Source of the DNA: Candidatus Daviesbacteria bacterium RIFCSPLOWO2_01_FULL_39_23
Lineage (GTDB): Bacteria; Patescibacteriota; Microgenomatia; Daviesbacterales; UBA10151
Direction: 5' to 3'
DNA length: 64,000 nt
Assembly (NCBI GenBank): GCA_001776935.1
Contig: MFDN01000001.1
Coordinates: 101,449 to 165,448 of the forward strand
Shown here: one piece after another, positions 35,576 to 57,895 of the stretch
Position numbering within the stretch: the stretch's first letter is position 1
How the letters are laid out: every line of letters starts with the position of its first letter
Notes under the pieces: generated by a model
Told to the model about the DNA's origin: nothing
Databases searched by the model: none
The model's input: only the letters and a program-made list of their open reading frames with translations
Program-made: the position numbers and the translations under genes

Positions 35576-36529
<954 letters not shown>

Positions 36530-37264
36530 ATGAAGCATAAACAAAGAAGGTTTTTGCATAAAGGAAATTTTATTTCTTTGATAATTCCGGTTCTAAATGA
36601 GGAAAAAACTTTAGCAACCATTATAGATAAGTGTTCTACTCAGTCGGTGGTTAAGCAGTTAGTTATAGTAAATGACGGATCGACAGACGATACCCGTAGA
36701 ATATTAAATAAGATTAGTAAAAAAAGCAGTTCAAGACTCATTATTACAATATTGCATCATGATAATAACTTAGGGAAAGGTGCAGCAATAAAAACCGGAT
36801 TAGGCAAGGCGACAGGTAAATATGTGATGGTGCAGGATGCTGATTTGGAATATTCACCTGATGAAATCAAGCATTTATATAATAAGGCTGAAGAAACGGA
36901 AAGCGGGATAGTCTTTGGTACAAGATCGAATCATAAAAAAAAGGGGTATTTACTTGCTCAGCTGGGAAATTGGTATTTAAATTTGATGTTTAATTTTTTG
37001 TTTGGATATCATTTAACGGATAGCTATACCTGTTACAAATTAATACCCAGAACGATTTGGGAAAAGATGAAGCTGAGGTCAAATGGATTTGAAATTGATG
37101 CTGAGTTAATTGCAAAATTAGGTATATGGGGATACAAGATTACGGAGATTCCAATTTCGTATTTCCCCCGTAAATATTCTGAGGGTAAAAAAATTAAATG
37201 GTTAGATCTTTTTAAAGCAACAGGAGCCGCAATAAAAGTACGCCTTTTAGGAAGCAGTATCTAA
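36530..37264 (+). CDS. Polyprenyl-phosphate mannose/glucose synthase-like GT2 (DPM1/Ppm1-like, soluble)
   Basis: ISLIIPVLNEEKTL...VIVNDGSTDDT...LGKGAAIKTG...VQDADLEYSPDE. Confidence 0.6.
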   Translation: MKHKQRRFLHKGNFISLIIPVLNEEKTLATIIDKCSTQSVVKQLVIVNDGSTDDTRRILNKISKKSSSRLIITILHHDNNLGKGAAIKTGLGKATGKYVMVQDADLEYSPDEIKHLYNKAEETESGIVFGTRSNHKKKGYLLAQLGNWYLNLMFNFLFGYHLTDSYTCYKLIPRTIWEKMKLRSNGFEIDAELIAKLGIWGYKITEIPISYFPRKYSEGKKIKWLDLFKATGAAIKVRLLGSSI

Positions 37265-38197
37265 TCCTATCCAGGCGCCACCACCAAGAACAGATTTTTC
37301 TATGGCTGAAAGAACTTTTACTATCAAAACGCCTGTATTCATATCGGAAGTGATTTTTTGAAGCCCACGGATGGCCATAACAAATTCTAATAATTGTGCT
37401 GTTAGAGCAGCACCTTTTTCGTACTTGGGATATTGAGGTGGTTGGTTTAATTTATAATATGTTATTTTCTGATTAGAAATATTTGTATCGTCAAATTCTA
37501 TCTTTTCGTCTGTTCCTTCTATAGTAAGCTTTCGAATTTTATGAGTTCCGAACCAGCTGATATTTATTACAGCTTCAAGGTTATTTGCAAAAAGCATTTT
37601 AAATTTTACTGTATCATATAAATTATTTCTAGACTGATTAATTGAACCGACGGCTTTAACTTTTATAATTTGGGATTTTACTAAATCTAAAATTATGGAT
37701 ACCGGATGAGGGCCCCAGTCCCAGATAACGGAGGCGTCCTTACGGATGGGACTACATACACCCTCAAAATTTATTGATTTAACACTTTTAATTTTTTTGA
37801 ATAATGTTTTAACTCTACGATAGGCAGGATTATATAGATAAAGATGACCGGTTAATACTTTAGGTTTTGTTATTTTCCAGATTCTTTGCAACTGAAGGGC
37901 TCGGTCATAATTTGCAGTTAAGGGTTTTTCTATTAATAAATTATGGTTTAAAGCCAAAAGTTTTTTTGCTATATCAAAATGGGTAGAAATGGGCGTTGCA
38001 ATAATGAATCCATCAATATCCTTATTTTTTAACAGATCATTAATTGTTAAAGTTTTAATGTATGAATTTGGTAAGGAGTCAAGTGATTTTTGAGTTTGAG
38101 AGCAGATATATTTGATTTCAATATCTTTAATATTCTTAGCAGTGTGAAGATAATTCCGACCCCACTTACCTGTGCCGATAAGCGCTAAAGTAATCAC
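37247..38197 (-). CDS. Gfo/Idh/MocA-family NAD(P)-dependent sugar oxidoreductase
   Basis: A Rossmann N-terminus (M/V)ITLALIGTGKWG starts at a GTG. The ORF track extends 50 codons further upstream (to 38347), through a GC-rich hairpin-rich stretch, and I interpret that extension as non-coding. Confidence 0.55.
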   Translation of the reverse strand: MITLALIGTGKWGRNYLHTAKNIKDIEIKYICSQTQKSLDSLPNSYIKTLTINDLLKNKDIDGFIIATPISTHFDIAKKLLALNHNLLIEKPLTANYDRALQLQRIWKITKPKVLTGHLYLYNPAYRRVKTLFKKIKSVKSINFEGVCSPIRKDASVIWDWGPHPVSIILDLVKSQIIKVKAVGSINQSRNNLYDTVKFKMLFANNLEAVINISWFGTHKIRKLTIEGTDEKIEFDDTNISNQKITYYKLNQPPQYPKYEKGAALTAQLLEFVMAIRGLQKITSDMNTGVLIVKVLSAIEKSVLGGGAWIGLDTAS

Positions 38198-38336
38198 CCT
38201 ATAACCGCTTCGCCAAACATAAGCACTCTTAGTGCGGGGATGAAGGCGAAGCAAGGTTACAGTCTTCCGCGGCATGAGATGCGAAGCGGATGTAAACTTA
38301 GAATCAAGAAAACCACGGCTTAAAAGCCGCGGAAGT
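38198..38336 (-). promoter_or_regulatory. GC-rich structured RNA element (candidate attenuator / riboswitch-like leader or small RNA) between two sugar-modification genes
   Basis: About half G+C, against roughly one third in the flanks. Perfect complementary pairs: 38326-38335 with 38264-38273 (10 bp); and 38205-38214 with either 38281-38289 (9 bp) or 38245-38252 (8 bp), which are mutually exclusive. The terminator sits at the 5' end. Confidence 0.4.
38305..38332 (-). terminator. Intrinsic (rho-independent) terminator directly after the 38337..39395 gene
   Basis: On the minus-strand RNA, CCGCGGC-UUUUAA-GCCGUGG forms a 7-bp stem followed by UUUUCUU. Confidence 0.5.
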
Positions 38337-39395
38337 TTATAGCCCATAGGTTTGCCTAAACCAGTTAATAGTTTGCTTGAGGCCTGTTATAAGATCTACT
38401 TTTGGTGCATAATTCAACTGATTTTTTATTTTTGTTAAATCAGGGCATCGCCTTTGCGGTTCCCCGGCTGGATAATTTGGCGGATAATTTTTTCTTCGGG
38501 GTTTAACACCATTGCCTAATATTTCAGCTATGGTTTGTGCCAACTCAAACATTCCTATTTCCGGTTTGTCATTGCCGATATTGTAGGCTTCGCCTTTTTT
38601 TCCGGTGATCAATACTTTAAAGATAGCTGTAATTGCATCCGATATATAACAAAAAGTTCTTGTTTGAACACCTTTATCGTGTACTGGTAAATCTTTGCCC
38701 CGTAAGCCATTATAAATAAATGTTGGTACCACCCGGTAATCGATATGCTTCATGCCAGGGCCATAGATATTAAACGGTCTGACTATTTTTATAGGAACTT
38801 TGTAAATTTGATGGTATGTTACGCATAAGGTTTCTGCAAGTCTTTTGGATTCATCGTAGCAAGCTCTTGGTCCAACGCTTGAAACGTGTCCGGCATATGT
38901 TTCCGGAGTGGGAACAAATTCGGGATGAGGATCTCCGTAAATTTCACTTGAAGAAAAAAATAAAAAACTCTCCGGTTTGGTAACCCGCGCCAATTCTAAA
39001 AGATTTTTGGCTCCAAGGATTGCACTTTCGATTGTTTCTAAGGGATATTTTTTATAATAATAGGGGGAAGCTAAGCCTGCCGCGTGAATTATATAATCAA
39101 CTTTTTCATTTGTAATGACTGGAAGTCTGATGTCTCCATCCAGAAATTGGAAATTTTTATCCTTAATATTTAACAGGAAGTTTTTCTTGGAACCTGTGAT
39201 ATAGTTATCAATTGAAATTACCTTGCATTTATTTTTAAAGACTTTTTTGTTCAGAAGATATAAAACTGCATTAACATAAGAGCCTATAAACCCGGATCCT
39301 CCTGATATCAAAATTATTTTTCCTTCCAAAGCGGTTGCCTCCTGTTTGATATCGTTGACAATCGTATTTAGGATTCGAGAAGTTATTTTGGACAT
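38337..39395 (-). CDS. UDP-glucuronate decarboxylase (UXS/ArnA-C-like) short-chain dehydrogenase/reductase (SDR)
   Basis: ILISGGSGFIGSYV, SSSEIYGDP, ACYDESKRLAETLC, and RPFNIYGPGM. Confidence 0.65.
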   Translation of the reverse strand: MSKITSRILNTIVNDIKQEATALEGKIILISGGSGFIGSYVNAVLYLLNKKVFKNKCKVISIDNYITGSKKNFLLNIKDKNFQFLDGDIRLPVITNEKVDYIIHAAGLASPYYYKKYPLETIESAILGAKNLLELARVTKPESFLFFSSSEIYGDPHPEFVPTPETYAGHVSSVGPRACYDESKRLAETLCVTYHQIYKVPIKIVRPFNIYGPGMKHIDYRVVPTFIYNGLRGKDLPVHDKGVQTRTFCYISDAITAIFKVLITGKKGEAYNIGNDKPEIGMFELAQTIAEILGNGVKPRRKNYPPNYPAGEPQRRCPDLTKIKNQLNYAPKVDLITGLKQTINWFRQTYGL

Positions 39396-40649
39396 TTATA
39401 CTATTGTTGCTTCGGGGACAGGTATTATAAAATGACCACCGCCTTTTTTATAATCGGATAATTTATTGATGAGAGGAGTTGCAAAATTCCACGCTAAAAT
39501 AAAAATATAATCCGGCCTAGTTTCGGCAATTTTGCTGAACGGAACTACAGGGATATGTGTGCCTGGTGTATATAGCCCCTGTTTATATTCGCTGTCGTCC
39601 ACTATGTAATCTAAAATATTGGGCCCAATTTTATAATAATTAAGTAGAGTATTTCCTTTTGCCGGTGCGCCATATCCTGCAATAGTTTTATTCTTCTTTC
39701 TCAAATCTGTCAGAATCTTGATTAGTTTTCTTTTATTTTTTTCGATTTTGCTTGCAAATTTGTTGTATGTTTTAATATCATCCAGTTTTAATTTTTTCTC
39801 AAGCGCTATAAATTCAAAAACGGCTTTTTGAACTTTAAATTTTGCAGGATTTTTTTTGACATATACTCTTAAAGAACCGCCATGAGTGTTAACTTTTTTA
39901 GCGTCAAAAATTTCCATTTCGTGTCTTTTGAAAAGTGCTATCAGAGGACGAAGTGATAAGTAAGATAAATGTTCGTGGTAGATTGTGTCGAATAAATTTT
40001 TTTCTATAAAATCAACAAGGTAAGGGAACTCAATTACAAAAACTCCGGTTTCTTTAATAAGCGTTTTAACTGATTTCACTATTTCGTCTAAATCATTAAT
40101 ATGGGCAAATACATTATTTGCCGTAACAACATCGGCATAACCAAATCTTTTAATAATTTCTTTTGCAAGTTTTAAATTTAAATAGCGCGGTAGAGTTTTA
40201 ATGCCGTTTTTAGTTGCTTCTTTTGCTATTTTTACTGCCGGGTCTACGCCCAGTACTTTGATACCATTTTTTTTTAAAGGTTTTAGCAAAATTCCGTCAT
40301 TACTGCCAATGTCGATTACGTGCGAATTTTTATTTAGTTTAAATCTTTTGATTAGGTCGTTTGCATATTCTTCAAAGTGCGCTATAAAAACTGATGACGT
40401 TGATGAAACGTAAACATAATTTCTAAAAAGTAGCCAGGGAGATACGACATGGGTTAGTTGCAATTGACCGCAATCTAAACAAAAATTGACCTGCAGTGGA
40501 AAAAATTTTTCCTTTGTTTTTAAATCTTTTTTTGCTATGAATGCATTGGCAGGAGGAGTGGGCGATAAGGAAACCACTCTTTCTAAATTTTTACCCTCAC
40601 ACATCCGGCAGGACTTCAATTGAAACACTAAAGGGTTAGTGTTTTTCAT
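39396..40649 (-). CDS. Sugar C-methyltransferase (class I SAM MTase with N-terminal Zn-ribbon; TylC3/C-methyltransferase family)
   Basis: CRMCEGKNL...CLDCGQLQL zinc ribbon, the SAM-binding motif VIDIGSNDG, and a C-terminal C-methyltransferase-type domain. Confidence 0.65.
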   Translation of the reverse strand: MKNTNPLVFQLKSCRMCEGKNLERVVSLSPTPPANAFIAKKDLKTKEKFFPLQVNFCLDCGQLQLTHVVSPWLLFRNYVYVSSTSSVFIAHFEEYANDLIKRFKLNKNSHVIDIGSNDGILLKPLKKNGIKVLGVDPAVKIAKEATKNGIKTLPRYLNLKLAKEIIKRFGYADVVTANNVFAHINDLDEIVKSVKTLIKETGVFVIEFPYLVDFIEKNLFDTIYHEHLSYLSLRPLIALFKRHEMEIFDAKKVNTHGGSLRVYVKKNPAKFKVQKAVFEFIALEKKLKLDDIKTYNKFASKIEKNKRKLIKILTDLRKKNKTIAGYGAPAKGNTLLNYYKIGPNILDYIVDDSEYKQGLYTPGTHIPVVPFSKIAETRPDYIFILAWNFATPLINKLSDYKKGGGHFIIPVPEATIV

Positions 40650-41052
40650 CTGAGGTAATTTTAATTCTTACAGTATCACCCTCGTATTGTTCTTGTTGTC
40701 GTGGTTCGGTGGTAATGGCTAGAAAAACAGTATCCTCCAAAAATTCCATGGAGTGAGCAATCATTGGCCGGGATAAAACTAAATCCCCTGGTTTTAAAAT
40801 TACCGATTCCACAGTTGAATTTTTCTTAGTCATATCTTTTTCTGAGTATCTGAATCTGCCGCTTACACAAAAAACATAATGGGAGTCTTTTTTATGATAA
40901 TGATTACCTCTTTCTGTACCAGTTTTGCTGGTGATATATAGCACTGCCCTGAATTTTGTTTTATCAGAAACATTAGGTAAACGGGTGATATATCCTCTTT
41001 CGTCTATAAATTCCGGCTTTACATGAGTTACTTTAATTGACATATAATACAA
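40636..41052 (-). CDS. FdtA/QdtA-like NDP-4-keto-6-deoxyhexose 3,4-ketoisomerase (small cupin)
   Basis: FIDERGYITRL...ERGNHYHKKDSHYVFCVSGRF closely parallels the FdtA motif RGFHAHKKLEQ..VC..GS. Confidence 0.55.
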   Translation of the reverse strand: MYYMSIKVTHVKPEFIDERGYITRLPNVSDKTKFRAVLYITSKTGTERGNHYHKKDSHYVFCVSGRFRYSEKDMTKKNSTVESVILKPGDLVLSRPMIAHSMEFLEDTVFLAITTEPRQQEQYEGDTVRIKITSDEKH

Positions 41053-41057
41053 TGCTT

Positions 41058-41086
41058 AATATATAGAGGATTAGATTGATTGTCAA
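41058..41086 (-). promoter_or_regulatory. Candidate sigma70-like promoter for the minus-strand operon starting at 41052
   Basis: On the minus strand, TTGACA-N17-TATATT lies about 14 nt upstream of the ATG. Confidence 0.35.
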
Positions 41087-41108
41087 GATGATATAGATTT
41101 TATATATT
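41080..41108 (+). promoter_or_regulatory. Candidate sigma70-like promoter for the 41143 gene; its -35 overlaps the divergent promoter's -35
   Basis: TTGTCA-N17-TATATT on the plus strand. The TTGTCAA/TTGACAA hexamers of the two promoters are the same base pairs. Confidence 0.35.
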
Positions 41109-41142
41109 CATTTAAGAGAGTCTTATTATATAATTTAGACTG

Positions 41143-42981
41143 ATGAAAAAATTATTTCTTGATACCCCTGTAAAGGGTTTGCTGTATTGGTATATTTTTA
41201 TTTTTTTCTCAACTGAAATTTTATCTAATTTTAAGCTCTTAGAAAGAGGATATATTTTATCTGGGGAGATAACTTTTTGGACAGTATTTTTATTTTTTCA
41301 TCGTAAAAGAGTTTTGTATTCATTACGAAATATTAACTTAGGTTCCAAAAGCCTCTTGTTTATACTGATACTTTTATTATTAACCTTTATTCAGGGGTTT
41401 TTAAGCGCTCCGAGTACGACAGACAGTATGGTTTATCATATTCCGCGGGTGATGTATTGGATACAAGAGAAGACCCTTTTTCAGGATGTTATCCGGAATT
41501 CGCATGATTACATGGCTCCATTTGGGGAATATATTTTACTTCATTTGTATCTTATTTTTGGAAACGATAGGATGTTATTTTTTTCGCAATGGATTGCGTA
41601 TGTTGTTTCAATTTACGTTATCGGCTTAATTGGTTTTCAGCTTGGTGTATCTCAAAAATCTATAAAATTAATCAGGTTATTTGCGGCTACCTTGCCCATA
41701 ACGGTTATGCAGGCTTCGAGTACCCAGGTTGATATGGTAGTTACAGCATTACTTCTTATATGCTTGCATCTAAGTTTATTTCTGAAGGACCATTACTTAG
41801 CTAAACATTCCGTATTGCTGGGTTTTGTTATAGCTTTGGGATTTTTAACTAAAGCAACGTTTGCTTTCTACGTACTAATACCAATAAGCGTGTTGTTTCT
41901 TTCTTACTATAATAAATTTAAAAAATCTGCTTTCATAATAGCTCCTGTACTTCTTATAGTCATAATTTTGCAATTTCGATTCATCTCCCAGAATTTTTTG
42001 CTATATGGAAATCCTCTCGGAGTAAAATTCTCTGAAAAAGGTGAAGAGGCAGTATACATCAATGAAGTGATTTCCCCATTTAGTATGTTATCTAATCTAA
42101 CACGTAATTTATTCGTTCATTTGCCTGTTCCTCTCTTCCCATCTCTTATACGAAACGGAATAGTAAATTTGCATAATTTAATGGGATTTGATGTTAATGA
42201 TTCAAGGATTACCTGCTGCGGAACTAAATTTGTTGTTAATTCTATCCTGTATCCTCAGGAAGATATTGTTGCTAATCCTCTTCATCTGATACTTATTTTG
42301 GCGGGAGGTTTTTTTATAATATTTGAAAAAGGAAAATTAAACAGGGATAAACAAGTTAAAGTTTTATATTTATCGTCGATTATTTCATTTATTGTATTTT
42401 CCGCATTAATTAAATGGCAGCCTTTTCATCCTAGACTTGAGATACCTTTTTTCCTGGTCGGGGGTATGAGCTCTATTATAATTTTAAGTCAGGCAAATAA
42501 AAAAAGAATTTTGCATATCTGGGTTGCTTTATCAGGTGTGTTAGCTATTATGATTATAATTTTAAATGTATCCAGGCCTTATATTTCCTATAATTTGTTT
42601 TATGATTTAGTTAAGTCTTTTCAACCAATAACAGCAAGCGTGCCTGAAGCTTTTTATATAAAACCCCGCGAGCAGCAATATTTCAATGCCCGATATTATT
42701 GGTACGAGCCTTACATTGCGATTACAACATTAATTGCTCAAAAAAATAACAAAGACACTACTATTGCTTTTGATTTACCGGATGGTTTTGAGTATCCCCT
42801 GTGGGCTTTGATGAAAAAGCAGAATATAAAAGCACGCATAATCCCTTACTCGCAGATAGATGATGAAACTGTGTTAGTTTCATCATCTGTGGACCCCTTT
42901 ACCAGGATAGGTTATAAAACAGTTTGCATAGAGAGCACAATAAAATACGGCTATGTCTGTTTATCCGAGAGGATAAGATAA
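41143..42981 (+). CDS. Polytopic membrane protein, GT-C-like glycosyltransferase candidate
   Basis: 612 aa with about 12 TM segments and a C-terminal soluble domain. Family unassigned. Confidence 0.45.
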   Translation: MKKLFLDTPVKGLLYWYIFIFFSTEILSNFKLLERGYILSGEITFWTVFLFFHRKRVLYSLRNINLGSKSLLFILILLLLTFIQGFLSAPSTTDSMVYHIPRVMYWIQEKTLFQDVIRNSHDYMAPFGEYILLHLYLIFGNDRMLFFSQWIAYVVSIYVIGLIGFQLGVSQKSIKLIRLFAATLPITVMQASSTQVDMVVTALLLICLHLSLFLKDHYLAKHSVLLGFVIALGFLTKATFAFYVLIPISVLFLSYYNKFKKSAFIIAPVLLIVIILQFRFISQNFLLYGNPLGVKFSEKGEEAVYINEVISPFSMLSNLTRNLFVHLPVPLFPSLIRNGIVNLHNLMGFDVNDSRITCCGTKFVVNSILYPQEDIVANPLHLILILAGGFFIIFEKGKLNRDKQVKVLYLSSIISFIVFSALIKWQPFHPRLEIPFFLVGGMSSIIILSQANKKRILHIWVALSGVLAIMIIILNVSRPYISYNLFYDLVKSFQPITASVPEAFYIKPREQQYFNARYYWYEPYIAITTLIAQKNNKDTTIAFDLPDGFEYPLWALMKKQNIKARIIPYSQIDDETVLVSSSVDPFTRIGYKTVCIESTIKYGYVCLSERIR

Positions 42982-43010
42982 TTTAAATTTAATCGGTTAT
43001 AATAATCAGT

Positions 43011-43718
43011 ATGAATAATTATGTAAAGCATTTAGAGGAATTATCGACCTCGACAACTTTGAAGAGAAAGAAGAATTACGTTGATTATAACTTAAAAAAA
43101 TGTTTTAGAGATTTAGGATTTAACGGAATAAAAGTTTTGGAAGTAGGTCCGGGTCTAGGTGAATTTGAGAGTTATTTAAACGATAGAGGAGTCTCCAGTA
43201 TTGATATTGTCGATAATGATAAAAATATACTTAATTATGTCTCAAAAAAATACAGAATAAATAGATGCTATTTAACAAAAGATATTTCACTTGTAGATAA
43301 AAAGCTGGGTAGTTATGACTTCATTTTTTTGATGCAGGTTTTAGAACATTTGCCACAGGATAAATATGATGTTGTTTTGCGTCTGTTGTATAAACATTTA
43401 AGAAAAGATGGATATTTGGTTGTTGTTGTGCCGAACGCGAATAATCCATTGGGTCTGACCGAAAGATATGGAGACCTGCAGCATACAGGAAGTTTTACCG
43501 AGCAATCGCTTAGAGATTTAGTAAGCCTATCAGGTATAGAAAATTACTCAATGGAAATAAGAGGATACGAGATACCGCCTTATGATTTTATTAATCTATT
43601 TAGAATAATTTTTCAGAAAATTCTGCATCTTATGCTTTTGTTGGCTATGATTGCAAACGGGGGACTATTTTTCAAAACTATGACTCCAAATATTGCCTTG
43701 ATTATTAAAAAGAATTGA
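43011..43718 (+). CDS. Class I SAM-dependent methyltransferase
   Basis: VLEVGPGLGEF (motif I) and an acidic residue after beta-2 (DIVDND). Confidence 0.55.
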   Translation: MNNYVKHLEELSTSTTLKRKKNYVDYNLKKCFRDLGFNGIKVLEVGPGLGEFESYLNDRGVSSIDIVDNDKNILNYVSKKYRINRCYLTKDISLVDKKLGSYDFIFLMQVLEHLPQDKYDVVLRLLYKHLRKDGYLVVVVPNANNPLGLTERYGDLQHTGSFTEQSLRDLVSLSGIENYSMEIRGYEIPPYDFINLFRIIFQKILHLMLLLAMIANGGLFFKTMTPNIALIIKKN

Positions 43719-43731
43719 AGTGTTTTTTGTA

Positions 43732-45541: not shown

Positions 45542-45577
45542 ATTAGTATTATACTCAACTTTATGGTATTGCTTTAC

Positions 45578-49330: not shown

Positions 49331-49336
49331 AATAAT

Positions 49337-51063: not shown

Positions 51064-51124
51064 ATGGTTATATTATCATAATTTCTTATAACTGATATAC
51101 CTTTTAACTATAATTTTACTTTTT

Positions 51125-52162
51125 TTAATATGATTGGTATATATAAGACTGAATTTTATCAAACTCTCTGATGCTGTCTTTTCTTGAAAATGCGTGTTTT
51201 TTTAGGTTGTTTTTTCCGGAAGGAGGTAGGATAAGATTATAAACCTTTTTTGCAAAACCTAAGCTGTATTTATTTACTGCTCTTTGTATGCTCAGGAAAG
51301 ATATTCTAAGAAAAGGTATATACATAAACGAGTTAGCAAGGTATAAGTTTACAGCCAACAGAATTTTTTCTTTTGCTTCTGTTTGCGGGATTCTTTCTTT
51401 TTTTGCAAGGTGTTTTGCTATCACATCTAACCATACTCTATATTGTTTTGTGTATTTTGCCTTGCAGCAAATAACATCCAAATCATCGGTATAAGTACTG
51501 GCCGAGTTTGGTGTTTTCTCGCGGGCGCAATAAAAAATTGGTAAAGTTTTAGATTTACCGTTTATACATAAAATTATTGCCTGAAATATTTCTACCAGAT
51601 TATCATTTTTAATTTCGGGGTATTCTGCCAAATAATTAAAAACTTGTTTTATATCAGAAGTTTTTGTCACAGCGTATAGAAGTTGCATATAGCTTGATAG
51701 CAGTTGAGTCACTCTTTCTGAGGGTCTATTTGAGTTTATGTCCAAATCTACGCTGGCAAGATAAAAAGGGTATACGGAAATATTTTCTTTATTTCGGTTT
51801 TCAAAAAAAACATAATGCCCGTGAGCGGAAGAATAATCAGGATTGTCTTCTAAGAAATTGAGACATTTTTGAATAGCGTCGGGAATTACAAAATCATCAT
51901 CAGCGCAAAATAAAACGTATTCTGTTTTAACATGTTTATAAATTAACGGGAGTTTTTTTGCATAAGGATAATTTGGATAATGAAAATATTTAACATTCCT
52001 ATAATTTTTTACAAAAGGGAATGAAGCAGTTGTGGAATCGGCAACCAGTATAGGGAAAGCACAATTCGAATAATAGTCAAGCAACCTTTTAAGCTGTCGG
52101 TGTCGATTATAAGTTGGAATAAGTATGGTTACGTTTCCAGATATTTTTTTCTTCTTAGGCAT
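51125..52162 (-). CDS. GT2-like glycosyltransferase
   Basis: TILIPTYNRHRQLKRLLDYY...FPILVADS and a DxD motif (CADDDF). Confidence 0.5.
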   Translation of the reverse strand: MPKKKKISGNVTILIPTYNRHRQLKRLLDYYSNCAFPILVADSTTASFPFVKNYRNVKYFHYPNYPYAKKLPLIYKHVKTEYVLFCADDDFVIPDAIQKCLNFLEDNPDYSSAHGHYVFFENRNKENISVYPFYLASVDLDINSNRPSERVTQLLSSYMQLLYAVTKTSDIKQVFNYLAEYPEIKNDNLVEIFQAIILCINGKSKTLPIFYCAREKTPNSASTYTDDLDVICCKAKYTKQYRVWLDVIAKHLAKKERIPQTEAKEKILLAVNLYLANSFMYIPFLRISFLSIQRAVNKYSLGFAKKVYNLILPPSGKNNLKKHAFSRKDSIREFDKIQSYIYQSY

Positions 52163-53129
52163 GATAGCCCTCCAAAATTTTTTTGTAAAAATTTAGATTG
52201 CCGGCTTGTTCTGCAATAGTGCAAAGGAGGGTTATCTTTGCAGTGTAGTTTTGTTTGCTGTCCAAAAAGGCTTTTACCTGTTTATAAAGCCCCGGTTTAA
52301 AATCAATATCTACCTGGTTATCAAGGCTTACTTCCGAAATCTCAAAACTACCTTTCTTTTGCACCTGCAGCTTCTCAAGAGGTTTCAATATCAGTCGCTT
52401 ATTTTTTGTAAGTATTTCAATACCCCATCTGCCCGGGGCTTCCCAGTTTGCCTGATATGAAAATATTGCGTTATTTTCAGTAATACCGGCTCCGGCAAAA
52501 ACAGATGCTTTAGGATGCCAAGGTAGTCTGCCTTTTATATAAGCAGAGAATATTTTTGGTTGTCCTCCTAGAAAAAATGCCAAGTCGATTACGTGTGAGG
52601 AATTATGCATAAGCCAGTTTTCTTTAACGCCTGGAGCCTTTTTTAAAGGGGTGATTCTGTCGGCAATTTCCGTAAATTCAAAGTGTAAAGATAATACGCC
52701 TCCATCTTTTTTTATTATCTCCCTTGCTTCTGCAACTGAGGAGTAGAAGCGTCTATTATAAGCAACGAAAATTTTTGTTTTGGAGACCCCGGCTTTTGTT
52801 GCGACTGTTTTGATGTCTTCAAAACTTGAGCCGCCCGGCTTCTCAATCAGTATAGATTTTACGCCATATTGTATCAGTTTGATTGCGACAGTACCTAGCT
52901 GGTCTTCGCTGACTGCAATTATTGCTTCTTGAATTGGGAAATTGTTTTTAGACAAATAGTCTTCCAGCCCACCGATAGAAGGCTTTATGCCAGTTGTTTT
53001 TTCAAATTGCGTTGCTGATTGTTTGCCCCGTCCGACTACGACAAATTCTTTTCGTAACTTTTTTAGGACTTTGGCATATTCAATGGCCATTGGTCCGGCT
53101 CCTGCCAGCAAAATCGTTTGCTTGTTCAT
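52155..53129 (-). CDS. Gfo/Idh/MocA-family oxidoreductase
   Basis: Rossmann N-terminus, family-typical length, and an 8-nt overlap with the neighbouring gene. Confidence 0.55.
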   Translation of the reverse strand: MNKQTILLAGAGPMAIEYAKVLKKLRKEFVVVGRGKQSATQFEKTTGIKPSIGGLEDYLSKNNFPIQEAIIAVSEDQLGTVAIKLIQYGVKSILIEKPGGSSFEDIKTVATKAGVSKTKIFVAYNRRFYSSVAEAREIIKKDGGVLSLHFEFTEIADRITPLKKAPGVKENWLMHNSSHVIDLAFFLGGQPKIFSAYIKGRLPWHPKASVFAGAGITENNAIFSYQANWEAPGRWGIEILTKNKRLILKPLEKLQVQKKGSFEISEVSLDNQVDIDFKPGLYKQVKAFLDSKQNYTAKITLLCTIAEQAGNLNFYKKILEGYHA

Positions 53130-53133
53130 AATT

Positions 53134-54105
53134 TTATGTAAACGGATAGAGTGTGAATTTTTTAGCTGCTGATTTATTTAGAAATTTATGCAATTGATTA
53201 AGCAGTGTTAAGTGAATCTTTGAGGCTTCATCGTAAGAAGCAAGACCGCATGTTCCGTTTTTAAATATTTTCTCAGCCACGATATTTGTTAATCCGCTTT
53301 GGAAGGGGAGATTGGTTTCTGTTTCAGTCCATTTCCAGCCATTTTTCGATTGGGATATCCATGCTTTCTTTTCTGATTCCTTTGAAATGCATCGGTAGGT
53401 TTCGGATAAGACTTCAATTATATAAGGACTATCCCCCGAAGGATAACAGGTGAGTGATCCAAAGCTGCCGTTTTTAAAATGGATATTAAGGGTTCCGATT
53501 AATTCTAAAAATCCCGGCCGTTTACTTTCTATTGGTTTTGAATTAAGGCCTTTTGTATCAATCGTAAAATCATAGCAATCGGTCAAAAAGGCTATAAAAT
53601 CAATAAAATGAACAGCATTGGTAACAAGTCCCCATTGGCTTCCGGAAACGATTAAATGGATTTTTTTACTTCTTAATTGTTCTTTAATCTTTTGATAGAA
53701 GGGCATAATTCTCATGCTGAAATTAACCCATGCTTTAATTTTTTTCTTTTTTATTTGTTTTTTTATAGCTTTGTAGTCTTGGGCTTTTTGAAAAAGGATT
53801 TTTTCCAGTATTAAATATTTAACAGTGGAATTTTTCAATAATTCTTCCGTCACTTTTCTTCTGACATTTGAAGACGTTGCAATTATTGCCAGATCTATAT
53901 TTTTAGGTAAATCTTCCATTGTCTGCAAAAAATTTATTTCGTGGTTTAAAGAAGATGGAATTTGATCATAACGCTGACGGGCTGTTGATAAAGACTCTGC
54001 AGAAGGGTCAAAGACCGTGATTGAAAGCGGGGAAGTAATTTTTTTTAAACCCTGCAAATGTCTTGAGCCAATATTACCAGCCCCAATAATGCAAATTCTT
54101 TTCAT
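53134..54105 (-). CDS. Gfo/Idh/MocA-family oxidoreductase
   Basis: MKRICIIGAGNIGSRHL. Confidence 0.6.
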   Translation of the reverse strand: MKRICIIGAGNIGSRHLQGLKKITSPLSITVFDPSAESLSTARQRYDQIPSSLNHEINFLQTMEDLPKNIDLAIIATSSNVRRKVTEELLKNSTVKYLILEKILFQKAQDYKAIKKQIKKKKIKAWVNFSMRIMPFYQKIKEQLRSKKIHLIVSGSQWGLVTNAVHFIDFIAFLTDCYDFTIDTKGLNSKPIESKRPGFLELIGTLNIHFKNGSFGSLTCYPSGDSPYIIEVLSETYRCISKESEKKAWISQSKNGWKWTETETNLPFQSGLTNIVAEKIFKNGTCGLASYDEASKIHLTLLNQLHKFLNKSAAKKFTLYPFT

Positions 54106-54111
54106 AACGAC

Positions 54112-54139
54112 AGTATATCGTAATTATTAATGTTTGCAA
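54112..54139 (-). promoter_or_regulatory. Candidate promoter for the minus-strand operon starting at 54105 (near-leaderless)
   Basis: On the minus strand, TTGCAA-N16-TATACT ends 6 nt before the ATG. Confidence 0.35.
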
Positions 54140-54147
54140 GATTACAC

Positions 54148-54175
54148 TTGCTTCTTGTAACGCAAGCGTTATAAT
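54148..54175 (+). promoter_or_regulatory. Candidate promoter for the plus-strand operon starting at 54193
   Basis: TTGCTT-N16-TATAAT lies 17 nt upstream of the ATG. It is embedded in a small GCAAG/CTTGC palindromic cluster. Confidence 0.35.
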
Positions 54176-54192
54176 AAAATTTAAATCTTAAG

Positions 54193-55272
54193 ATGAGTAA
54201 ACAGAAAAATTCATTACCCCCGATTATTTTAGATGATGTGCAGCAAATCTGTACAAATGCAGCTTGGGCGTTAAAACGTCTGGAAGGAAAGACTATTTTA
54301 ATTGCTGGAGCTGCAGGTTTTCTGCCCAGTTATTTTGTGCATACACTAGCTTATGCAAACCTGGAAATGCTTAAGCGCCCCTGTAAAGTTATATGCCTCG
54401 ATAATTTTCGTACAGGAAAAGCAGAAAGACTGCTCCCCTGGAAGGGACATAAAAATATCAAATTTCTGACAAAAGATATCATTAAGCCGTTAAACATAAA
54501 AGATGACATTGATTACATTATACATGGTGCAAGCATTGCTTCTCCTGTCTGGTATCGTAAATTCCCCCTGGAAACAATAGATGCTAATGTGATTGGAACA
54601 CGAAGACTGCTTGATCTAGCCCGGGTACAAAAATCAGCGGGTTTTTTATACCTTTCATCAAGCGAGATTTATGGCGATCCGCTCAAACAATTTATTCCCA
54701 CGTCTGAAGACTATTGGGGGAATGTATCTTCTACGGGTCCCAGGGCATGTTATGATGAATCAAAGCGTTTGGCAGAAACATTGTGTATGACATATTATCG
54801 GCAATTTGATGTGCCGGTTAAAATAATAAGACCTTTTAATGTATATGGACCGGGGTTGCGTTTAGACGATGGACGGGTAGTACCGGATTTTATTAAAAAT
54901 GCACTTGAGAAAAAAACAATTACAATTTTTAGTAATGGTAAGGTGACCCGCAGTTTTTGTTATGTTACCGATGCTATAAGTGCAATGATTATGTTATTAA
55001 CCAACGATAAAGCAGACGGAGAAGCGTTTAATGTTGGCAATGATGAAGAAGTAACTATCTTTAAGCTGGCTAAAACAGTTGATGAAGTTGTCGGCAACAA
55101 AGAAGGAGTTAATTTTGTGGAAAATTCGGACAAAGCTTATCTTAAAGATAATCCGCAGAGACGTGTTCCAAATCTTGGTAAAATCCAAAAAACAATCGAC
55201 TGGACTCCAAGAATTCCTCTTGCCGAAGGCCTAAGGCGCACAATTTGTTTTTACAAAGGAGATAAAGAATGA
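54193..55272 (+). CDS. UDP-glucuronate decarboxylase-like SDR, paralog 2 (degenerate glycine-rich loop)
   Basis: YLSSSEIYGDP, ACYDESKRLAETLC and RPFNVYGPGL are present, but the NAD loop is GAAGFLP instead of GxxGxxG. Confidence 0.6.
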   Translation: MSKQKNSLPPIILDDVQQICTNAAWALKRLEGKTILIAGAAGFLPSYFVHTLAYANLEMLKRPCKVICLDNFRTGKAERLLPWKGHKNIKFLTKDIIKPLNIKDDIDYIIHGASIASPVWYRKFPLETIDANVIGTRRLLDLARVQKSAGFLYLSSSEIYGDPLKQFIPTSEDYWGNVSSTGPRACYDESKRLAETLCMTYYRQFDVPVKIIRPFNVYGPGLRLDDGRVVPDFIKNALEKKTITIFSNGKVTRSFCYVTDAISAMIMLLTNDKADGEAFNVGNDEEVTIFKLAKTVDEVVGNKEGVNFVENSDKAYLKDNPQRRVPNLGKIQKTIDWTPRIPLAEGLRRTICFYKGDKE

Positions 55273-56624
55273 AAGTAGGAATAATTGGTTGTGGATATGT
55301 GGGGCTGGTCACAGGAGTGGGTTTTGCCTTAAAAGGTCACAAGGTTACCTCTGTGGAGATAGATAAGTCCAGGGTTGGGCAGCTTACAAAAGGGATTGTC
55401 CCTTTTCATGAGCCGGGAGTTCAAAAGGGACTAAAGTCAGTTTTAAAACAGGGTAATATAAGGATTTCCAGCTCAATGGATGATATAGCAGATTGCGAGG
55501 TAATCTTAATTTGTGTTCAGACGCCCCCGCAGCCGGATGGAGTTATTAATTTACAAATACTTGAATCAGCTACCCGTAATCTTGTATCCGTATTGGAGCA
55601 GAGCCCACGTTTGCGGACAGTAGTTGTTCGCAGTACAGTTATTCCCGGTACCACAGATAAGCTTGTGGCTCCTATTTTGCAAGGTAACTCTTCAGCGCTT
55701 GCTAAAAAAACAGCAATAGCGTTTAATCCGGAATTTCTCAGGGAAGGATCTGCGTTACAGGATTTTCTGAATCCGGACCGGATAGTAATAGGGACAAAAT
55801 CGGGTATGGCAAAAAAGATGCTCAAAAAACTCTTTTTGCCGTTTAAGGCCTCTATTGTCTGGACTACTCCTTCTACAGCCGAACTTGCCAAGTATGCCTC
55901 CAATACATTGTTAGCGACTCTTATTTCTTTTTCAAATGAAATAGCCAGAGTATGCGAACGAACACCTGACACTGATGTTGAAGATGTGTTGGGAGTGGTA
56001 CATCGGGATCGGCGGTTCAGTTTTCCTGAGGGTAAAGGTTCATTAACGGCAGGTATTCTTTCTTATCTAAAGGCAGGTTGTGGATTTGGAGGAAGTTGTT
56101 TGCCAAAAGATTTGTCTGCGCTTATTGCTTACGCGCGCTCGGTAGATCAGGAAACCCCTCTTTTACAGGCAGTTGCAACAGTAAATGTCGGGCAATCTCT
56201 TAGGATTATAGATATGGTTTCAAAGGCTCTCGGAGGATTAGAAAAGCGCAAGGTTGCTGTATTGGGAGTAGCCTTCAAGGGTGGAACCGATGACTTACGT
56301 GAATCGCCGGGTTTGCGGATAGTAGATGCATTATTAAGTAAACAGGCTCAGGTTTTTATATACGATCCATTAGTAAAACCGGTTGCACTTGAAGGATATA
56401 AAAATAAAAGAGTTACTATTGCATCGAAATTGATGGAAGCTTTGCAATACGCAGATGCCTGTATTGTAACATCGAACTCTCCCGAATTTAAAACACTTAG
56501 GCGTTGGATGAAGCAAGAAAAAAATAATCATAAAGTTATCATTGACGGGCGCCGTATCCTAAAAGTATCAGGGGATTTGGAGAGTAATTACTACGCAATA
56601 GGAAGGGCGAGAAAGCCGGTATAA
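55269..56624 (+). CDS. ugd: UDP-glucose 6-dehydrogenase (UDP-glucose/GDP-mannose dehydrogenase family)
   Basis: MKVGIIGCGYVGLVTGVGFA and GFGGSCLPKD. It is coupled to the UXS-like gene by an ATGA overlap. Confidence 0.75.
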   Translation: MKVGIIGCGYVGLVTGVGFALKGHKVTSVEIDKSRVGQLTKGIVPFHEPGVQKGLKSVLKQGNIRISSSMDDIADCEVILICVQTPPQPDGVINLQILESATRNLVSVLEQSPRLRTVVVRSTVIPGTTDKLVAPILQGNSSALAKKTAIAFNPEFLREGSALQDFLNPDRIVIGTKSGMAKKMLKKLFLPFKASIVWTTPSTAELAKYASNTLLATLISFSNEIARVCERTPDTDVEDVLGVVHRDRRFSFPEGKGSLTAGILSYLKAGCGFGGSCLPKDLSALIAYARSVDQETPLLQAVATVNVGQSLRIIDMVSKALGGLEKRKVAVLGVAFKGGTDDLRESPGLRIVDALLSKQAQVFIYDPLVKPVALEGYKNKRVTIASKLMEALQYADACIVTSNSPEFKTLRRWMKQEKNNHKVIIDGRRILKVSGDLESNYYAIGRARKPV

Positions 56625-56633
56625 GTGATGGGT

Positions 56634-56661
56634 TTACAATTATTGAGTATCATTGTATACT
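56634..56661 (+). promoter_or_regulatory. Candidate internal promoter upstream of the DegT-family gene
   Basis: TTACAA-N16-TATACT ends 10 nt before the ATG at 56672. Confidence 0.3.
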
Positions 56662-56671
56662 TTTTCCCAAT

Positions 56672-57895
56672 ATGAAGAGTTCCGCTTCCGACAAAAAAGA
56701 CTCATTAAGACTTACTACCGCCATAGCGTTACATGGCAAAGAGGAGGAAGAAAGAGTGCTTAAAGTATTAAGAGAACACAGAACAATAATGGGTCGGGAG
56801 ATTGAGGAATTCGAGAGAAGGCTTGCAAAGATCTTTGAAAAAGAATACGGCATTATGGTAAATTCCGGATCTTCTGCAAACCTTCTGGCTATAGAACTTT
56901 TAAATCTTCCGCCTGGGACTGAAGTCATTACCCCTATTTTGACTTTTTCTACAACAGTTGCCCCCCTTATTCAAAAGGGACTGGTTCCTGTCTTTGTTGA
57001 TGTGCTGGACGGGAAGTATGTTATAGATGCAGATAAGGTGGAAGCTGCAATTAGTAAAAAAACAAAAGCATTAATGGTCCCTATCCTAATGGGGAATGTT
57101 CCGAATCTGGAAAAATTACAAAAAATAGCTAAGAAACACAACCTTTATTATATAGATGATTCCTGTGATGCAATTACGTCACTTTATAAAGGAAAATCCT
57201 CAGGGGCTTACTCCGACATTTCGACAACAAGTGTATATGGTTCACATGTCATTACTGCAGGCGGTAATGGAGGTGTGGTGATGGTAAACAAGGAAGAATT
57301 GAGGGATAAGGCTAAGGTTTTAAGGGGGTGGGGGAGAAGTTCAGCGATTTTCTCTGAATCGGAAAAAATTGAATACCGTTTCTCCAGCAAAATTGGCAAT
57401 ATTCCTTATGATGGAAAATATATTTTCGAAGAAATAGGATATAATTTTCTCCCCATGGAACTAGGAGCTGCATTTGGCAATGCCCAGCTTGATAAGCTCA
57501 AATTGTTTATAAAAATAAGAGAAAGAAATGCAAAGATATTAAGTAAATTGTTTGGTCAGTATCCTGATTTATTTATTGTGCCGATAGAAGACGAACAGGC
57601 AAGACCGCAGCGCCAGGTTTTTCCTGTAACGATTAAAAAAGGCGCTCCGTTTACCAGACTTGAATTGGTGACTTTCTTGGAAAAAGAAAATGTGCAGACA
57701 AGACCAATCTTTACAGGCAATATCTTAAAACAGCCCGGATTTAAAAATATTACCCACCGCGATACCCAAAAGGATTACGAGGTGACAGATAATATTATGG
57801 AACGCGGATTCATTATAGGAGTTCATCAGGGATTAACTTTAGATCATTTAGACAAGTTGAGTAATTTGCTTCATAAATTCATCAAGCAATTTTAA
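56672..57895 (+). CDS. DegT/DnrJ/EryC1/StrS-family PLP-dependent sugar aminotransferase (or E1-type 3-dehydratase)
   Basis: 407 aa with family-typical length and composition. Context: an FdtA-like ketoisomerase and a CDP-4-keto-6-deoxyhexose pathway are nearby. Confidence 0.55.
   Translation: MKSSASDKKDSLRLTTAIALHGKEEEERVLKVLREHRTIMGREIEEFERRLAKIFEKEYGIMVNSGSSANLLAIELLNLPPGTEVITPILTFSTTVAPLIQKGLVPVFVDVLDGKYVIDADKVEAAISKKTKALMVPILMGNVPNLEKLQKIAKKHNLYYIDDSCDAITSLYKGKSSGAYSDISTTSVYGSHVITAGGNGGVVMVNKEELRDKAKVLRGWGRSSAIFSESEKIEYRFSSKIGNIPYDGKYIFEEIGYNFLPMELGAAFGNAQLDKLKLFIKIRERNAKILSKLFGQYPDLFIVPIEDEQARPQRQVFPVTIKKGAPFTRLELVTFLEKENVQTRPIFTGNILKQPGFKNITHRDTQKDYEVTDNIMERGFIIGVHQGLTLDHLDKLSNLLHKFIKQF

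Follow-up and report, generated by a model that had tools for sequence, protein, structure and literature searches.

Closest described systems

Ascarylose, abequose, paratose and tyvelose are products of the cytidine diphosphate (CDP)-3,6-dideoxyhexose pathway, which comprises RfbF/DdhA, RfbG/DdhB, the dehydratase E1 (RfbH/AscC) and the reductase E3 (RfbI/AscD). Homologues of the first three families are encoded in adjoining divergent operons of Candidatus Daviesbacteria bacterium RIFCSPLOWO2_01_FULL_39_23, an uncultured groundwater bacterium, within the window studied here, i.e. the whole analysed stretch of 64,000 nucleotides (64 kb; contig MFDN01000001.1, positions 101,449 to 165,448; coordinates below count from its first nucleotide). 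They belong to a set of sugar-tailoring genes between 37247 and 57895 that also contains two sugar C-methyltransferases (C-MT1 and C-MT2), an NDP-sugar 6-dehydrogenase (NDP, nucleoside diphosphate) and two proteins resembling UDP-xylose synthase (UXS-like). Overall, the interval is best and rather probably explained by three nucleotide-sugar tailoring cassettes, named A, B and C, that follow one chemical logic and export their products on a lipid carrier.

As in the CDP-3,6-dideoxyhexose pathway, a cupin and a short-chain dehydrogenase/reductase (SDR) come after the dehydratase, presumably as AscE and AscF. Unlike in that pathway, three of the window proteins scored under the cut-offs of their families (264 against 300, 210 against 278 and 346 against 423), the E1 homologue has lost three of the four [2Fe-2S] cysteines, and the gene of an E3 reductase is absent. 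The RfbF-like nucleotidyltransferase (NT) falls in a sister subfamily which elsewhere travels with 6-dehydrogenase and UXS-like genes. A second relative is ColD, the GDP-4-keto-6-deoxymannose 3-dehydratase of colitose formation. A histidine in place of the Schiff-base lysine marks 3-dehydratases; E1 and SpnQ require a four-cysteine cluster and a reductase, whereas ColD is cluster-free, hydrolyses its intermediate and regenerates pyridoxamine phosphate (PMP) with glutamate (PMC8987622). The window protein shares with ColD the histidine and the lack of an iron-sulfur cluster, hence the same glutamate-recycling mechanism is likely (PMC8987622). Unlike ColD, it is closer to E1 (252 vs 154 bits), and the GDP-mannose context is missing, neither Gmd nor ColC being present in the window.

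The branched-sugar pathways of MtmC, TcaB9 and KijD1, among them those of D-mycarose and tetronitrose, use the same C-methyltransferase family with the same catalytic motifs, next to an RmlC-like cupin, a ketoreductase and a reductase of the Gfo family (distant match to KijD10). While MtmC, KijD1, TcaB9 and KijD10 were the sequences compared, the likeness presumably extends to TylC3 of dTDP-mycarose and to NovU, with NovW and NovS, of noviose. Unlike these antibiotic pathways, the window genes belong to the surface glycans of a Candidate Phyla Radiation (CPR) bacterium, lack a 2,3-dehydratase and have RfbF-like/RfbG-like or UXS-like neighbours instead of RmlA/RmlB. The architecture of cytoplasmic tailoring, loading on a lipid carrier and transfer outside the membrane is that of the Arn system for 4-amino-4-deoxy-L-arabinose (L-Ara4N; Ugd-ArnA-ArnB-ArnC-ArnT). 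With Arn and with the systems PpgS/Rv3632/Rv3779 and PgfS/PgfM the window shares a 6-dehydrogenase, a UXS/ArnA-type decarboxylase, a pyridoxal phosphate (PLP) enzyme of the DegT family, ArnC/PgfS/PpgS-like glycosyltransferases of family 2 (GT2), a small DUF2304 membrane protein and membrane transferases of the GT-C type. We take DUF2304 to be linked to Rv3632. Unlike Arn, the window has a His-type dehydratase in place of the Lys-type aminotransferase, no formyltransferase or deformylase, and additional C-methyltransferases.

Organization of the cassettes

Open reading frames (ORFs) of the window were annotated by Pfam, NCBIfam and PDB searches, and transcription units were deduced from gene coordinates. 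Family membership, catalytic motifs, operons and conserved neighbourhoods provide the direct support. Cassette A is an eleven-gene operon on the minus strand (54105 to 43732), in which several genes overlap and no gap exceeds 61 nt. Divergent from it, a three-gene operon on the plus strand from 54193 to 57895 forms cassette B, and a four-gene operon on the minus strand from 41052 to 37247 forms cassette C. Between both minus-strand operons lies a plus-strand pair, 41143 to 43718, of a GT-C gene and an S-adenosylmethionine (SAM) methyltransferase gene.

Cassette A
53134 to 54105 and 52155 to 53129, minus strand: two tandem oxidoreductases with the Gfo/Idh/MocA N-terminal domain only (PF01408, 41.7 and 28.6 bits)
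51125 to 52162, minus strand: GT2-type glycosyltransferase (TIGR04440, 235 bits; cut-off 70)
50290 to 51063, minus strand: RfbF-like glucose-1-phosphate nucleotidyltransferase, NT (TIGR02623, 264.5 bits; PDB 1tzf, 3e-56)
49337 to 50305, minus strand: short CDP-glucose-4,6-dehydratase-like SDR, 322 amino acids (TIGR02622, 210 bits; cut-off 278)
48407 to 49330, minus strand: GalE/RmlD-like SDR, putative 4-ketoreductase or epimerase (PF01370, 122 bits; PF04321, 52 bits)
47958 to 48410, minus strand: RmlC-like cupin 2 of the 3ejk subfamily, putative epimerase (PF00908, 41.5 bits; PDB 3ejk, 4e-35)
46893 to 47930, minus strand: predicted GT-B-fold transferase (no Pfam hit; AlphaFold2 model, pLDDT 93)
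45578 to 46858, minus strand: sugar C-methyltransferase C-MT2 (PF08421, PF13489, PF08484)
44525 to 45541, minus strand: Gfo_m2, Gfo/Idh/MocA oxidoreductase, predicted ketoreductase partner of C-MT2 (PF01408, PF22725, PF02894)
43732 to 44532, minus strand: DUF5672 protein at the end of the operon (PF18922, 166 bits)

Cassette B
54193 to 55272, plus strand: UXS-like SDR b (motifs SSSEIYGDP and GPRACYDESKR)
55269 to 56624, plus strand: NDP-sugar 6-dehydrogenase, Ugd-like (TIGR03026, 396 bits; above the cut-off of 190)
56672 to 57895, plus strand: E1-like PMP/PLP 3-dehydratase (predicted) of the DegT family (RfbH model NF011936, 346 bits; cut-off 423)

Cassette C and the adjoining pair
40636 to 41052, minus strand: FdtA/QdtA-like cupin 1, putative 3,4-ketoisomerase or epimerase (PF05523, 30.5 bits; cut-off 23)
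39396 to 40649, minus strand: sugar C-methyltransferase C-MT1 of the TylC3/TcaB9/MtmC type (PF08421, PF13489, PF08484)
38337 to 39395, minus strand: UXS-like SDR a, predicted NDP-glucuronate decarboxylase (human UXS1, 3e-58)
37247 to 38347, minus strand: Gfo_m1, Gfo/Idh/MocA oxidoreductase (PF01408, 55 bits)
41143 to 42981, plus strand: PMT_2-like GT-C membrane glycosyltransferase (PF13231, 24 bits; gathering cut-off of 26.1 not reached)
43011 to 43718, plus strand: class I SAM methyltransferase, candidate sugar O-methyltransferase (PF13489, 57 bits)

The ORFs named in an earlier reading of the letters alone (the original prediction) were all present where it had placed them, and the searches upheld most of its domain labels (Gfo/Idh/MocA, UXS-like, C-methyltransferases, cupins, SDR, RfbF- and RfbG-like, GT2, DegT). 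Missing from it were four genes of the interval: the 6-dehydrogenase (55269-56624), the DUF5672 protein (43732-44532), the GT-C enzyme (41143-42981) and the SAM methyltransferase (43011-43718).

Sugar C-methyltransferases

Judged by their sequences, C-MT1 and C-MT2 are true sugar C-methyltransferases of the TylC3/TcaB9/MtmC type, because they combine the three-domain architecture with end-to-end alignments to MtmC, KijD1 and TcaB9, sugar C-3-methyltransferases of known structure, and with conserved motifs. In both proteins the zinc ribbon, the SAM domain and the Methyltransf_14 domain scored above cut-off. The structures were matched end-to-end by C-MT1 with E-values of 5e-95 (MtmC), 7e-71 (KijD1) and 1e-67 (TcaB9), and by C-MT2 with values from 1e-65 (MtmC) to 5e-53. 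The four zinc-binding cysteines of C-MT2 (C-x2-C...C-x2-C) aligned to those of all three enzymes. The Tyr-x-Glu-His motif reads FDTIYHEHL in C-MT2, as in MtmC, and FDQIYDEHF in TcaB9; the translation of C-MT1 likewise carries FDTIYHEHL. It is hardly conceivable that these are non-sugar enzymes of a small-molecule pathway acting on a natural-product aglycone, an idea that can invoke nothing more than the generic class I SAM fold. The full sugar C-methyltransferase architecture, the end-to-end alignments at E <= 1e-53 and the neighbours, all of them nucleotide-sugar enzymes and glycosyltransferases, effectively refute it, and the sugar-type assignment of the original prediction was borne out.

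The same prediction had described two parallel modules of cupin, C-methyltransferase and Gfo/Idh/MocA oxidoreductase. A loose similarity in domain content exists, but a recent duplication of the modules was rejected: identity between C-MT1 and C-MT2 is only 35 %, BLAST did not match one cupin to the other, and the alignment of the two Gfo proteins covers no more than 49 residues. The closest paralogues in the interval were the two UXS-like SDRs at 38337-39395 and 54193-55272 (47 % identity). Nor was the supposed rarity of such pathways outside a few pathogens and antibiotic producers supported, since relatives of C-MT2 numbered at least 589 among species-representative genomes, spread over many phyla.

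An E1-like protein without iron-sulfur ligands

Among PDB entries the DegT-family protein of cassette B matched E1 best (3bcx, 7e-74, 252 bits), ahead of ColD (7e-44, 154 bits) and of all aminotransferases. His192 of the window protein aligned to His220 of E1 at the position of the Schiff-base lysine, a column confirmed by the entry of the H220K mutant (3bb8). The iron-sulfur ligands C251, C253 and C261 of E1 fall in a loop with the sequence GRDCYCAPGCDNTC; the window protein has GRSSAIFSESE there and contains one cysteine in all, the C193 equivalent, so that three of the four [2Fe-2S] cysteines are missing. The catalytic histidine was invariant in 120 of 120 E1-like homologues (at least 60 % identity), and the cysteine loop was absent from every one of them. 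A canonical E1 in another Patescibacteria genome (locus L017) retains RDCWCPTGKDNTC. No E3-like Fer2/FAD reductase, no 2,3-dehydratase of the Nudix type and no Lys-type DegT protein was detected among the window ORFs of at least 80-90 amino acids.

We predict that the protein is a 3-dehydratase which combines an E1-like scaffold with ColD-like chemistry. Deoxygenation at C-3 rather than amination is expected because histidine replaces the Schiff-base lysine and E1 is the closest relative, and ColD-like chemistry because the iron-sulfur cysteines are missing and the window has no reductase gene. A 3-aminotransferase, the role given to the DegT protein in the original prediction, was rejected on account of the histidine, as was classical E1/E3 chemistry for want of the cysteine motif and of a reductase gene. 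A class I/II (aspartate-type) aminotransferase gene at 62743-63921 heads a minus-strand run with an SDR (61804-62742) and a PgfS-like GT2 gene; it could relate to glutamate/2-oxoglutarate cycling for the PMP enzyme.

UXS-like proteins and the 6-dehydrogenase

The motifs SSSEIYGDP, GPRACYDESKR and QTRTF of UXS-like a aligned to the catalytic motifs of UXS1 (S/T-x-E, YxxxK and QTR), and the protein is predicted to supply a 4-keto-pentose. Both UXS-like proteins remained under the cut-off of the model for the bifunctional UDP-4-keto-pentose/UDP-xylose synthase (NF008872; 87 and 90 bits vs 294). The gene of UXS-like b overlaps the start of the 6-dehydrogenase gene by 4 nt. The 6-dehydrogenase did not reach the equivalog cut-offs of UDP-glucose dehydrogenases (AglM, 339 vs 670 bits; TuaD, 318 vs 700 bits). 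It had been remarked that an fcl-like gene in the window lacked its Gmd partner. This point is moot because the gene presumably meant, 54193-55272, is UXS-like and paired with the 6-dehydrogenase; an Fcl-like SDR proper lies just outside the interval at 35585-36529. Along 54001-58000, the operon of UXS-like b, the 6-dehydrogenase and the E1-like protein, the G+C content rises to 0.39-0.40 vs about 0.33-0.35 in the adjoining genes, which could reflect conservation or a different origin.

Nucleotidyltransferase, dehydratase and further proteins of cassette A

The NT aligned over its full length to 1tzf (residues 2-257 on 4-258) and yet remained under the curated RfbF cut-off of TIGR02623 (264.5 vs 300.25 bits). 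On this model eight RfbF homologues adjoining a canonical RfbG scored 324-473, whereas NTs of the window type (window, L006, L008, L009, L013, L022 and L077) scored 214-277. By these scores the NT is a member of a sister subfamily of RfbF, and its nucleotide specificity is a prediction only. The RfbG-like SDR is shorter by about 30-60 residues than the canonical RfbG proteins compared (about 350-380 amino acids). Its Ser-Asp-Lys motif (SSDKAYG...YEVSK) aligned to TSDKCY...Y(S)xSK of three canonical RfbG proteins; at this position RmlB has Thr-Asp-Glu (TDE) and the UXS-like proteins have Ser-Ser-Glu (SSE). In the following SDR (48407-49330) the dehydratase acid/base motif was absent on alignment. 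Cupin 2 scored 29.7 bits on the RmlC 3,5-epimerase equivalog TIGR01221 (cut-off 155.75) and only about 28 bits against true RmlC structures, and the protein of its best structure, 3ejk, is itself uncharacterised. Gfo_m2 had distant PDB matches to enzymes of sugar redox chemistry at C-3, including the 3-ketoreductase KijD10 (4e-14).

For the protein at 46893-47930 a Pfam search yielded nothing even at E <= 1. From its structural model it is a GT-B transferase. TagF (3l7i) was the first Foldseek match (E 8e-5), as the label TagF-like in the original prediction implies, but the TM score was only 0.36 and ordinary GT-B glycosyltransferases scored nearly equal; for this model the label is thus plausible but unproven. 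The family counts about 182 proteins, and its members with a named source are from Daviesbacteria or uncultured bacteria.

Cupin and oxidoreductase of cassette C

In cupin 1 the sequence RGNHYHKK aligned to the histidine pair of FdtA (RGFHAHKK); the PDB matches to QdtA and FdtA were weak (E about 1e-3). Gfo_m1 scored 99 bits on the UDP-GlcNAc 3-dehydrogenase model, under its cut-off. As listed from the first ATG, the Gfo_m1 ORF has 366 amino acids, about 55-100 residues more than its orthologues (268-312 amino acids). Given these shorter orthologues and a Rossmann motif that opens only around residue 53, the true start is probably a downstream internal codon.

Conserved neighbourhoods

The cassettes were compared with loci of relatives (numbered with the prefix L) together with two further groups of window genes.

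32550 to 37264, plus strand: companion block of cassette C, with a PIG-V-like GT-C, a PpgS-like GT2, DUF2304, a GT2, an Fcl-like SDR and a GT2
35585 to 36529, plus strand: the Fcl-like SDR of this block (GDP-L-fucose synthase model, 292 bits; cut-off 500)
36530 to 37264, plus strand: the AglJ/ArnC/PpgS-like GT2 of this block
57892 to 62742, minus strand: companions of cassette B, a membrane protein of 691 amino acids, a protein of 279 amino acids without assignment, a PgfS/ArnC-like GT2 (60843-61853) and an SDR (61804-62742)

The unit of cupin 1, C-MT1 and the UXS-like gene was kept in L003, L004, L005, L013 and L142, mostly with a Gfo gene next to it; UXS-like a directly adjoins C-MT1 in all orthologous loci examined, and orthologues of Gfo_m1 follow the UXS-like gene in L003, L005, L013 and L142. 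Fusions of cupin and C-MT1 were found in P0061 and P0080 (L141:10001-11656), one protein of 551 amino acids, which argues that both domains act on the same substrate. The companion block (GT2 of the PpgS/AglJ/ArnC kind, DUF2304, GT2, Fcl-like SDR, GT2) flanks the unit in the window and in L003, L005, L013 and L142. In the window, L003, L013 and L142, a GT-C gene stands next to that of the cupin: the protein at 41143-42981 has an orthologue of 60 % identity in L013, and membrane proteins of similar size (571-607 amino acids) take the same position in L003 and L142. L003 has a methyltransferase gene equivalent in position and length to 43011-43718, and the L013 counterpart is 61 % identical.

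Orthologues of C-MT2 (68-82 % identity; L009-L014) all have an orthologue of Gfo_m2 downstream, directly in five loci and at a distance of 3.5 kb in L009; DUF5672 follows the C-MT2-Gfo pair in L003 and L013. The upstream supplier of a 4-keto sugar varies: a dTDP-glucose 4,6-dehydratase in L011 and L012, a UXS-like protein with a 6-dehydrogenase in L013, and a nearby canonical CDP-glucose 4,6-dehydratase in the loci of more distant relatives (51-52 % identity; L015, L016). In operons of NT, UXS-like, 6-dehydrogenase and C-methyltransferase genes from Daviesbacteria (L013), a metagenome-assembled genome of Solibacteraceae (L077, a tight four-gene operon) and Leptolyngbya (L022), a 4,6-dehydratase gene was absent from within the operon. 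A C-methyltransferase locus of Hymenobacter (L079) also contains an RfbF-like NT, a UXS-like and a 6-dehydrogenase gene, and the set of NT, 6-dehydrogenase and UXS-like genes recurs in Acidobacteriota, Cyanobacteria and Bacteroidota. The 80 loci with the proteins most similar to C-MT2, from many phyla, contained an RfbF-like gene (at least 38 % identity) in 40 cases, a dehydratase with the Ser-Asp-Lys motif (canonical RfbG) in 22, an SDR of the UXS type in 7 and one of the RmlB type in 3.

The E1-like gene occurs with NT, 6-dehydrogenase and UXS-like genes in L007, L008 and L089, where no SDR with the dehydratase acid/base motif was present within 10 kb on either side. L006 has the NT, a short RfbG-like SDR (an orthologue of 53 % identity) and the E1-like gene without Ugd or UXS. 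In L007 and L089, orthologues of UXS-like b (70 % identity) precede the 6-dehydrogenase, the tandem oxidoreductase pair (52155-54105) is kept with the cohort of NT, E1-like, membrane-protein and GT2 genes, and the companions of cassette B, including 57892-59967, are kept with UXS-like b, the 6-dehydrogenase, the E1-like gene and the NT. A metagenome scan with the E1-like protein returned few long close loci, L089 being the sole addition. In L007 (6300-11230) the UXS-like and 6-dehydrogenase genes lie between two E1-like paralogues, which share 65 % and 75 % identity with the window protein.

Proposed pathways

The logic common to the three cassettes would be the formation of an NDP-4-keto sugar, methylation (C-methyltransferases) or deoxygenation (E1-like protein) of the adjoining carbon, reduction of the keto group by a Gfo protein or an SDR, and use by transferases; substrates, nucleotide carrier, methylation position, order of the steps and final sugars are predicted from the protein families. 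In cassette A, the NT would activate glucose-1-phosphate, the short 4,6-dehydratase would yield NDP-4-keto-6-deoxyglucose, and the RmlC-like cupin would epimerise it. C-MT2 may then add a methyl group at C-3 (or C-5), Gfo_m2 and/or the GalE-like SDR may reduce the keto group, and the product would be used by the TagF-like GT-B enzyme, the GT2 and the DUF5672 protein. The product is most likely a C-methyl-6-deoxyhexose, possibly O-methylated by the methyltransferase of 43011-43718. CDP-vinelose of Azotobacter vinelandii, 6-deoxy-3-C-methyl-2-O-methyl-L-talose, is a cytidine-linked, C-methyl-branched and O-methylated 6-deoxyhexose. We know of no genes for its synthesis; by analogy, cassette A and the adjacent SAM methyltransferase could make a product of this kind, which we mention as a lead only.

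In cassette B, the 6-dehydrogenase and the UXS-like decarboxylase would form an NDP-4-keto-pentose or NDP-xylose. The E1 homologue without iron-sulfur cluster would remove the 3-hydroxyl group from the 4-keto-pentose of this cassette or from the 4-keto-6-deoxyhexose of cassette A; the intermediate would be hydrolysed and PMP regenerated from glutamate, making an E3 reductase dispensable. In cassette C, the second UXS-like enzyme would give a 4-keto-pentose, converted by the FdtA-like cupin, C-MT1 and the Gfo reductase to a C-methyl-branched sugar, with the Fcl-like SDR (35585-36529) as candidate epimerase or 4-reductase. A 4-keto-pentose is the suggested substrate in cassettes B and C, since UXS-like decarboxylases are conserved as partners there. 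The PpgS/ArnC/PgfS-like GT2 enzymes would load the products on polyprenyl phosphate, and GT-C enzymes would transfer them outside the membrane. This delivery is proposed because GT2 enzymes of the PpgS/ArnC/PgfS type, DUF2304 and many GT-C proteins occur together; the GT2 enzymes scored best on the PpgS, AglJ, ArnC and PgfS models, all under equivalog cut-offs.

Alternative explanations

Several points weigh against the three-cassette explanation. All substrate assignments are drawn from homology and neighbourhood, and the NT, the 4,6-dehydratase, the E1-like protein, the 6-dehydrogenase and both cupins are under curated equivalog cut-offs; their exact activities may therefore differ from those of their namesakes. 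The variable neighbours of C-MT2 orthologues, of the dTDP type in L011 and L012, and of more distant relatives, of the CDP type in L015 and L016, fix no single substrate. Loci of cassette C often have a separate 6-deoxyhexose operon at most 10 kb away (L004, L142), so that C-MT1 could take a 4-keto-6-deoxyhexose in trans while the UXS-like enzyme merely makes UDP-xylose. The literature searched offered no precedent for a pathway mixing families of the CDP type (RfbF, RfbG, E1) with families of the UDP type (Ugd, UXS). The original prediction had a single CDP-4-keto-6-deoxyhexose core feed both C-methyltransferase modules and the DegT protein add an amino group at C-3, resulting in C-methyl and/or 3-amino-3,6-dideoxy hexoses. 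Its CDP-hexose part stands in so far as the RfbF-like and RfbG-like genes share the operon of C-MT2, the dehydratase has the Ser-Asp-Lys motif of the CDP type and CDP-glucose genes are frequent beside the C-MT clade; cupin 1 also retains the FdtA/QdtA histidine pair, whose bearers precede 3-amination in known pathways. As a whole this explanation is improbable, however. The sole DegT-family protein has histidine instead of lysine at the Schiff-base position, as do its 120 homologues, and the interval contains no Lys-type sugar aminotransferase; the NT is under the curated RfbF threshold, and the module of C-MT1 is kept with a UXS-like decarboxylase while lacking a nucleotidyltransferase or 4,6-dehydratase of its own, which speaks against one core.

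Two tentative views differ on the role of the UXS-like proteins and the 6-dehydrogenase. These enzymes may simply make UDP-xylose and UDP-glucuronate donors, the C-methyltransferases and the E1-like protein acting on 4-keto-6-deoxyhexoses only; the products, just as tentative, would be a 3-C-methyl-6-deoxyhexose and a 3,6-dideoxyhexose as in mycarose-type and ascarylose/abequose-type pathways. The characterised C-methyltransferases and 3-dehydratases all act on 6-deoxyhexoses, the fully conserved UXS motifs would suit an ordinary UDP-xylose synthase, the NT, short RfbG-like and E1-like genes form a classical trio in L006 without Ugd or UXS, and canonical RfbG (22/80) vs the UXS-type SDR (7/80) is the more frequent partner at C-methyltransferase loci. 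We nevertheless doubt this conservative assignment, as the E1-like gene of L007, L008 and L089 is accompanied by NT, 6-dehydrogenase and UXS-like genes with no SDR of the 4,6-dehydratase motif within 10 kb, the C-methyltransferase of L013, L077 and L022 stands in an NT/UXS-like/6-dehydrogenase operon without a 4,6-dehydratase gene, and UXS-like a directly neighbours C-MT1 in all orthologous loci that were compared. The NT, the 6-dehydrogenase and the UXS-like protein might instead constitute one pathway that feeds an NDP-4-keto-pentose to the E1-like enzyme and the C-methyltransferases and leads to 3-deoxy and C-methyl-branched pentoses with Arn-like export, a proposal we make with reserve. 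It would imply that the 6-dehydrogenase and the UXS-like enzymes act on CDP-sugars, or enzymes of the RfbF and E1 type on UDP-sugars. A deoxy- or C-methyl-pentose pathway of this kind was not described in the literature searched, and searches on CDP-glucose with C-methyltransferases, CDP-glucuronate and CDP-xylose turned up nothing usable. The sole bacterial sugar-biosynthesis paper with both a C-methyltransferase and a UDP-glucuronic acid decarboxylase concerned avilamycin, where they are on separate branches.

The enzyme families are all established ones, and the sequence became public, with generic annotations, through the ACD and GW2011 datasets. The novelty lies in how these families are combined: RfbF, RfbG and E1 occur in versions that miss the family thresholds, the E1-like proteins without iron-sulfur ligands make up a large clade, and in several phyla the genes of C-methyltransferases and E1-like proteins are wired to those of a 6-dehydrogenase and a UXS-like protein. 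For three predicted activities the cassettes offer clonable candidates: a 3-dehydratase of the E1 family working without an iron-sulfur partner, C-methyltransferases that receive their substrate from a glucuronate decarboxylase instead of a 4,6-dehydratase, and the NT subfamily. If the pentose route is true, it represents a new branch of bacterial deoxy and branched sugars with new enzymes for glyco-engineering; if it is false, mycarose-like and ascarylose-like chemistry would still be present outside pathogens and antibiotic producers.

The surrounding glycan island

The cassettes lie in the middle of a surface-glycan and glycosylation island of Daviesbacteria (Microgenomates, CPR) which covers at least the whole 64 kb, with a G+C content of about 34 %. 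The nearest homologues with a named source were, for every protein compared, from Daviesbacteria, Microgenomates or Patescibacteria. An identical copy of C-MT1 is encoded on contig AMFJ01012251 (JGI sample 3300000815), and the sequence of the E1-like protein recurs unchanged (100 % identity) in ACD_32C00113G0019 and in a Candidatus Daviesbacteria GW2011_GWB1_39_5 protein. CPR genomes are very small, yet more than 64 kb are devoted here to surface glycans. This investment suggests that the sugar coat is central to the lifestyle, probably one attached to other cells.

For a small CPR genome, membrane glycosyltransferases are unusually numerous here: 12 window ORFs had GT-C-type Pfam matches, of which 11 were to PMT/PMT_2, three of these under the gathering cut-off, and one was PIG-V-like. 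They are located at 28-31000, 32550-33728 and 41143-42981, with GT2 and GT4 genes and the gene of a Wzx-like flippase (1414-2892) in between; the window as a whole encodes about ten GT2 and two GT4 enzymes. Several large membrane proteins of the window are without Pfam match. None was obtained for the large ORFs 2889-6341, 6341-8347, 8344-10443, 12188-13402 and 57892-59967 (404-1150 amino acids), even at E <= 1 where so searched. The hydrophobic sequence encoded at 57892-59967 may be a further GT-C-like enzyme. At 37247-37264 and 57892-57895 the 3' ends of convergent genes overlap, by 18 nt and 4 nt respectively, which leaves no space for separate terminators.

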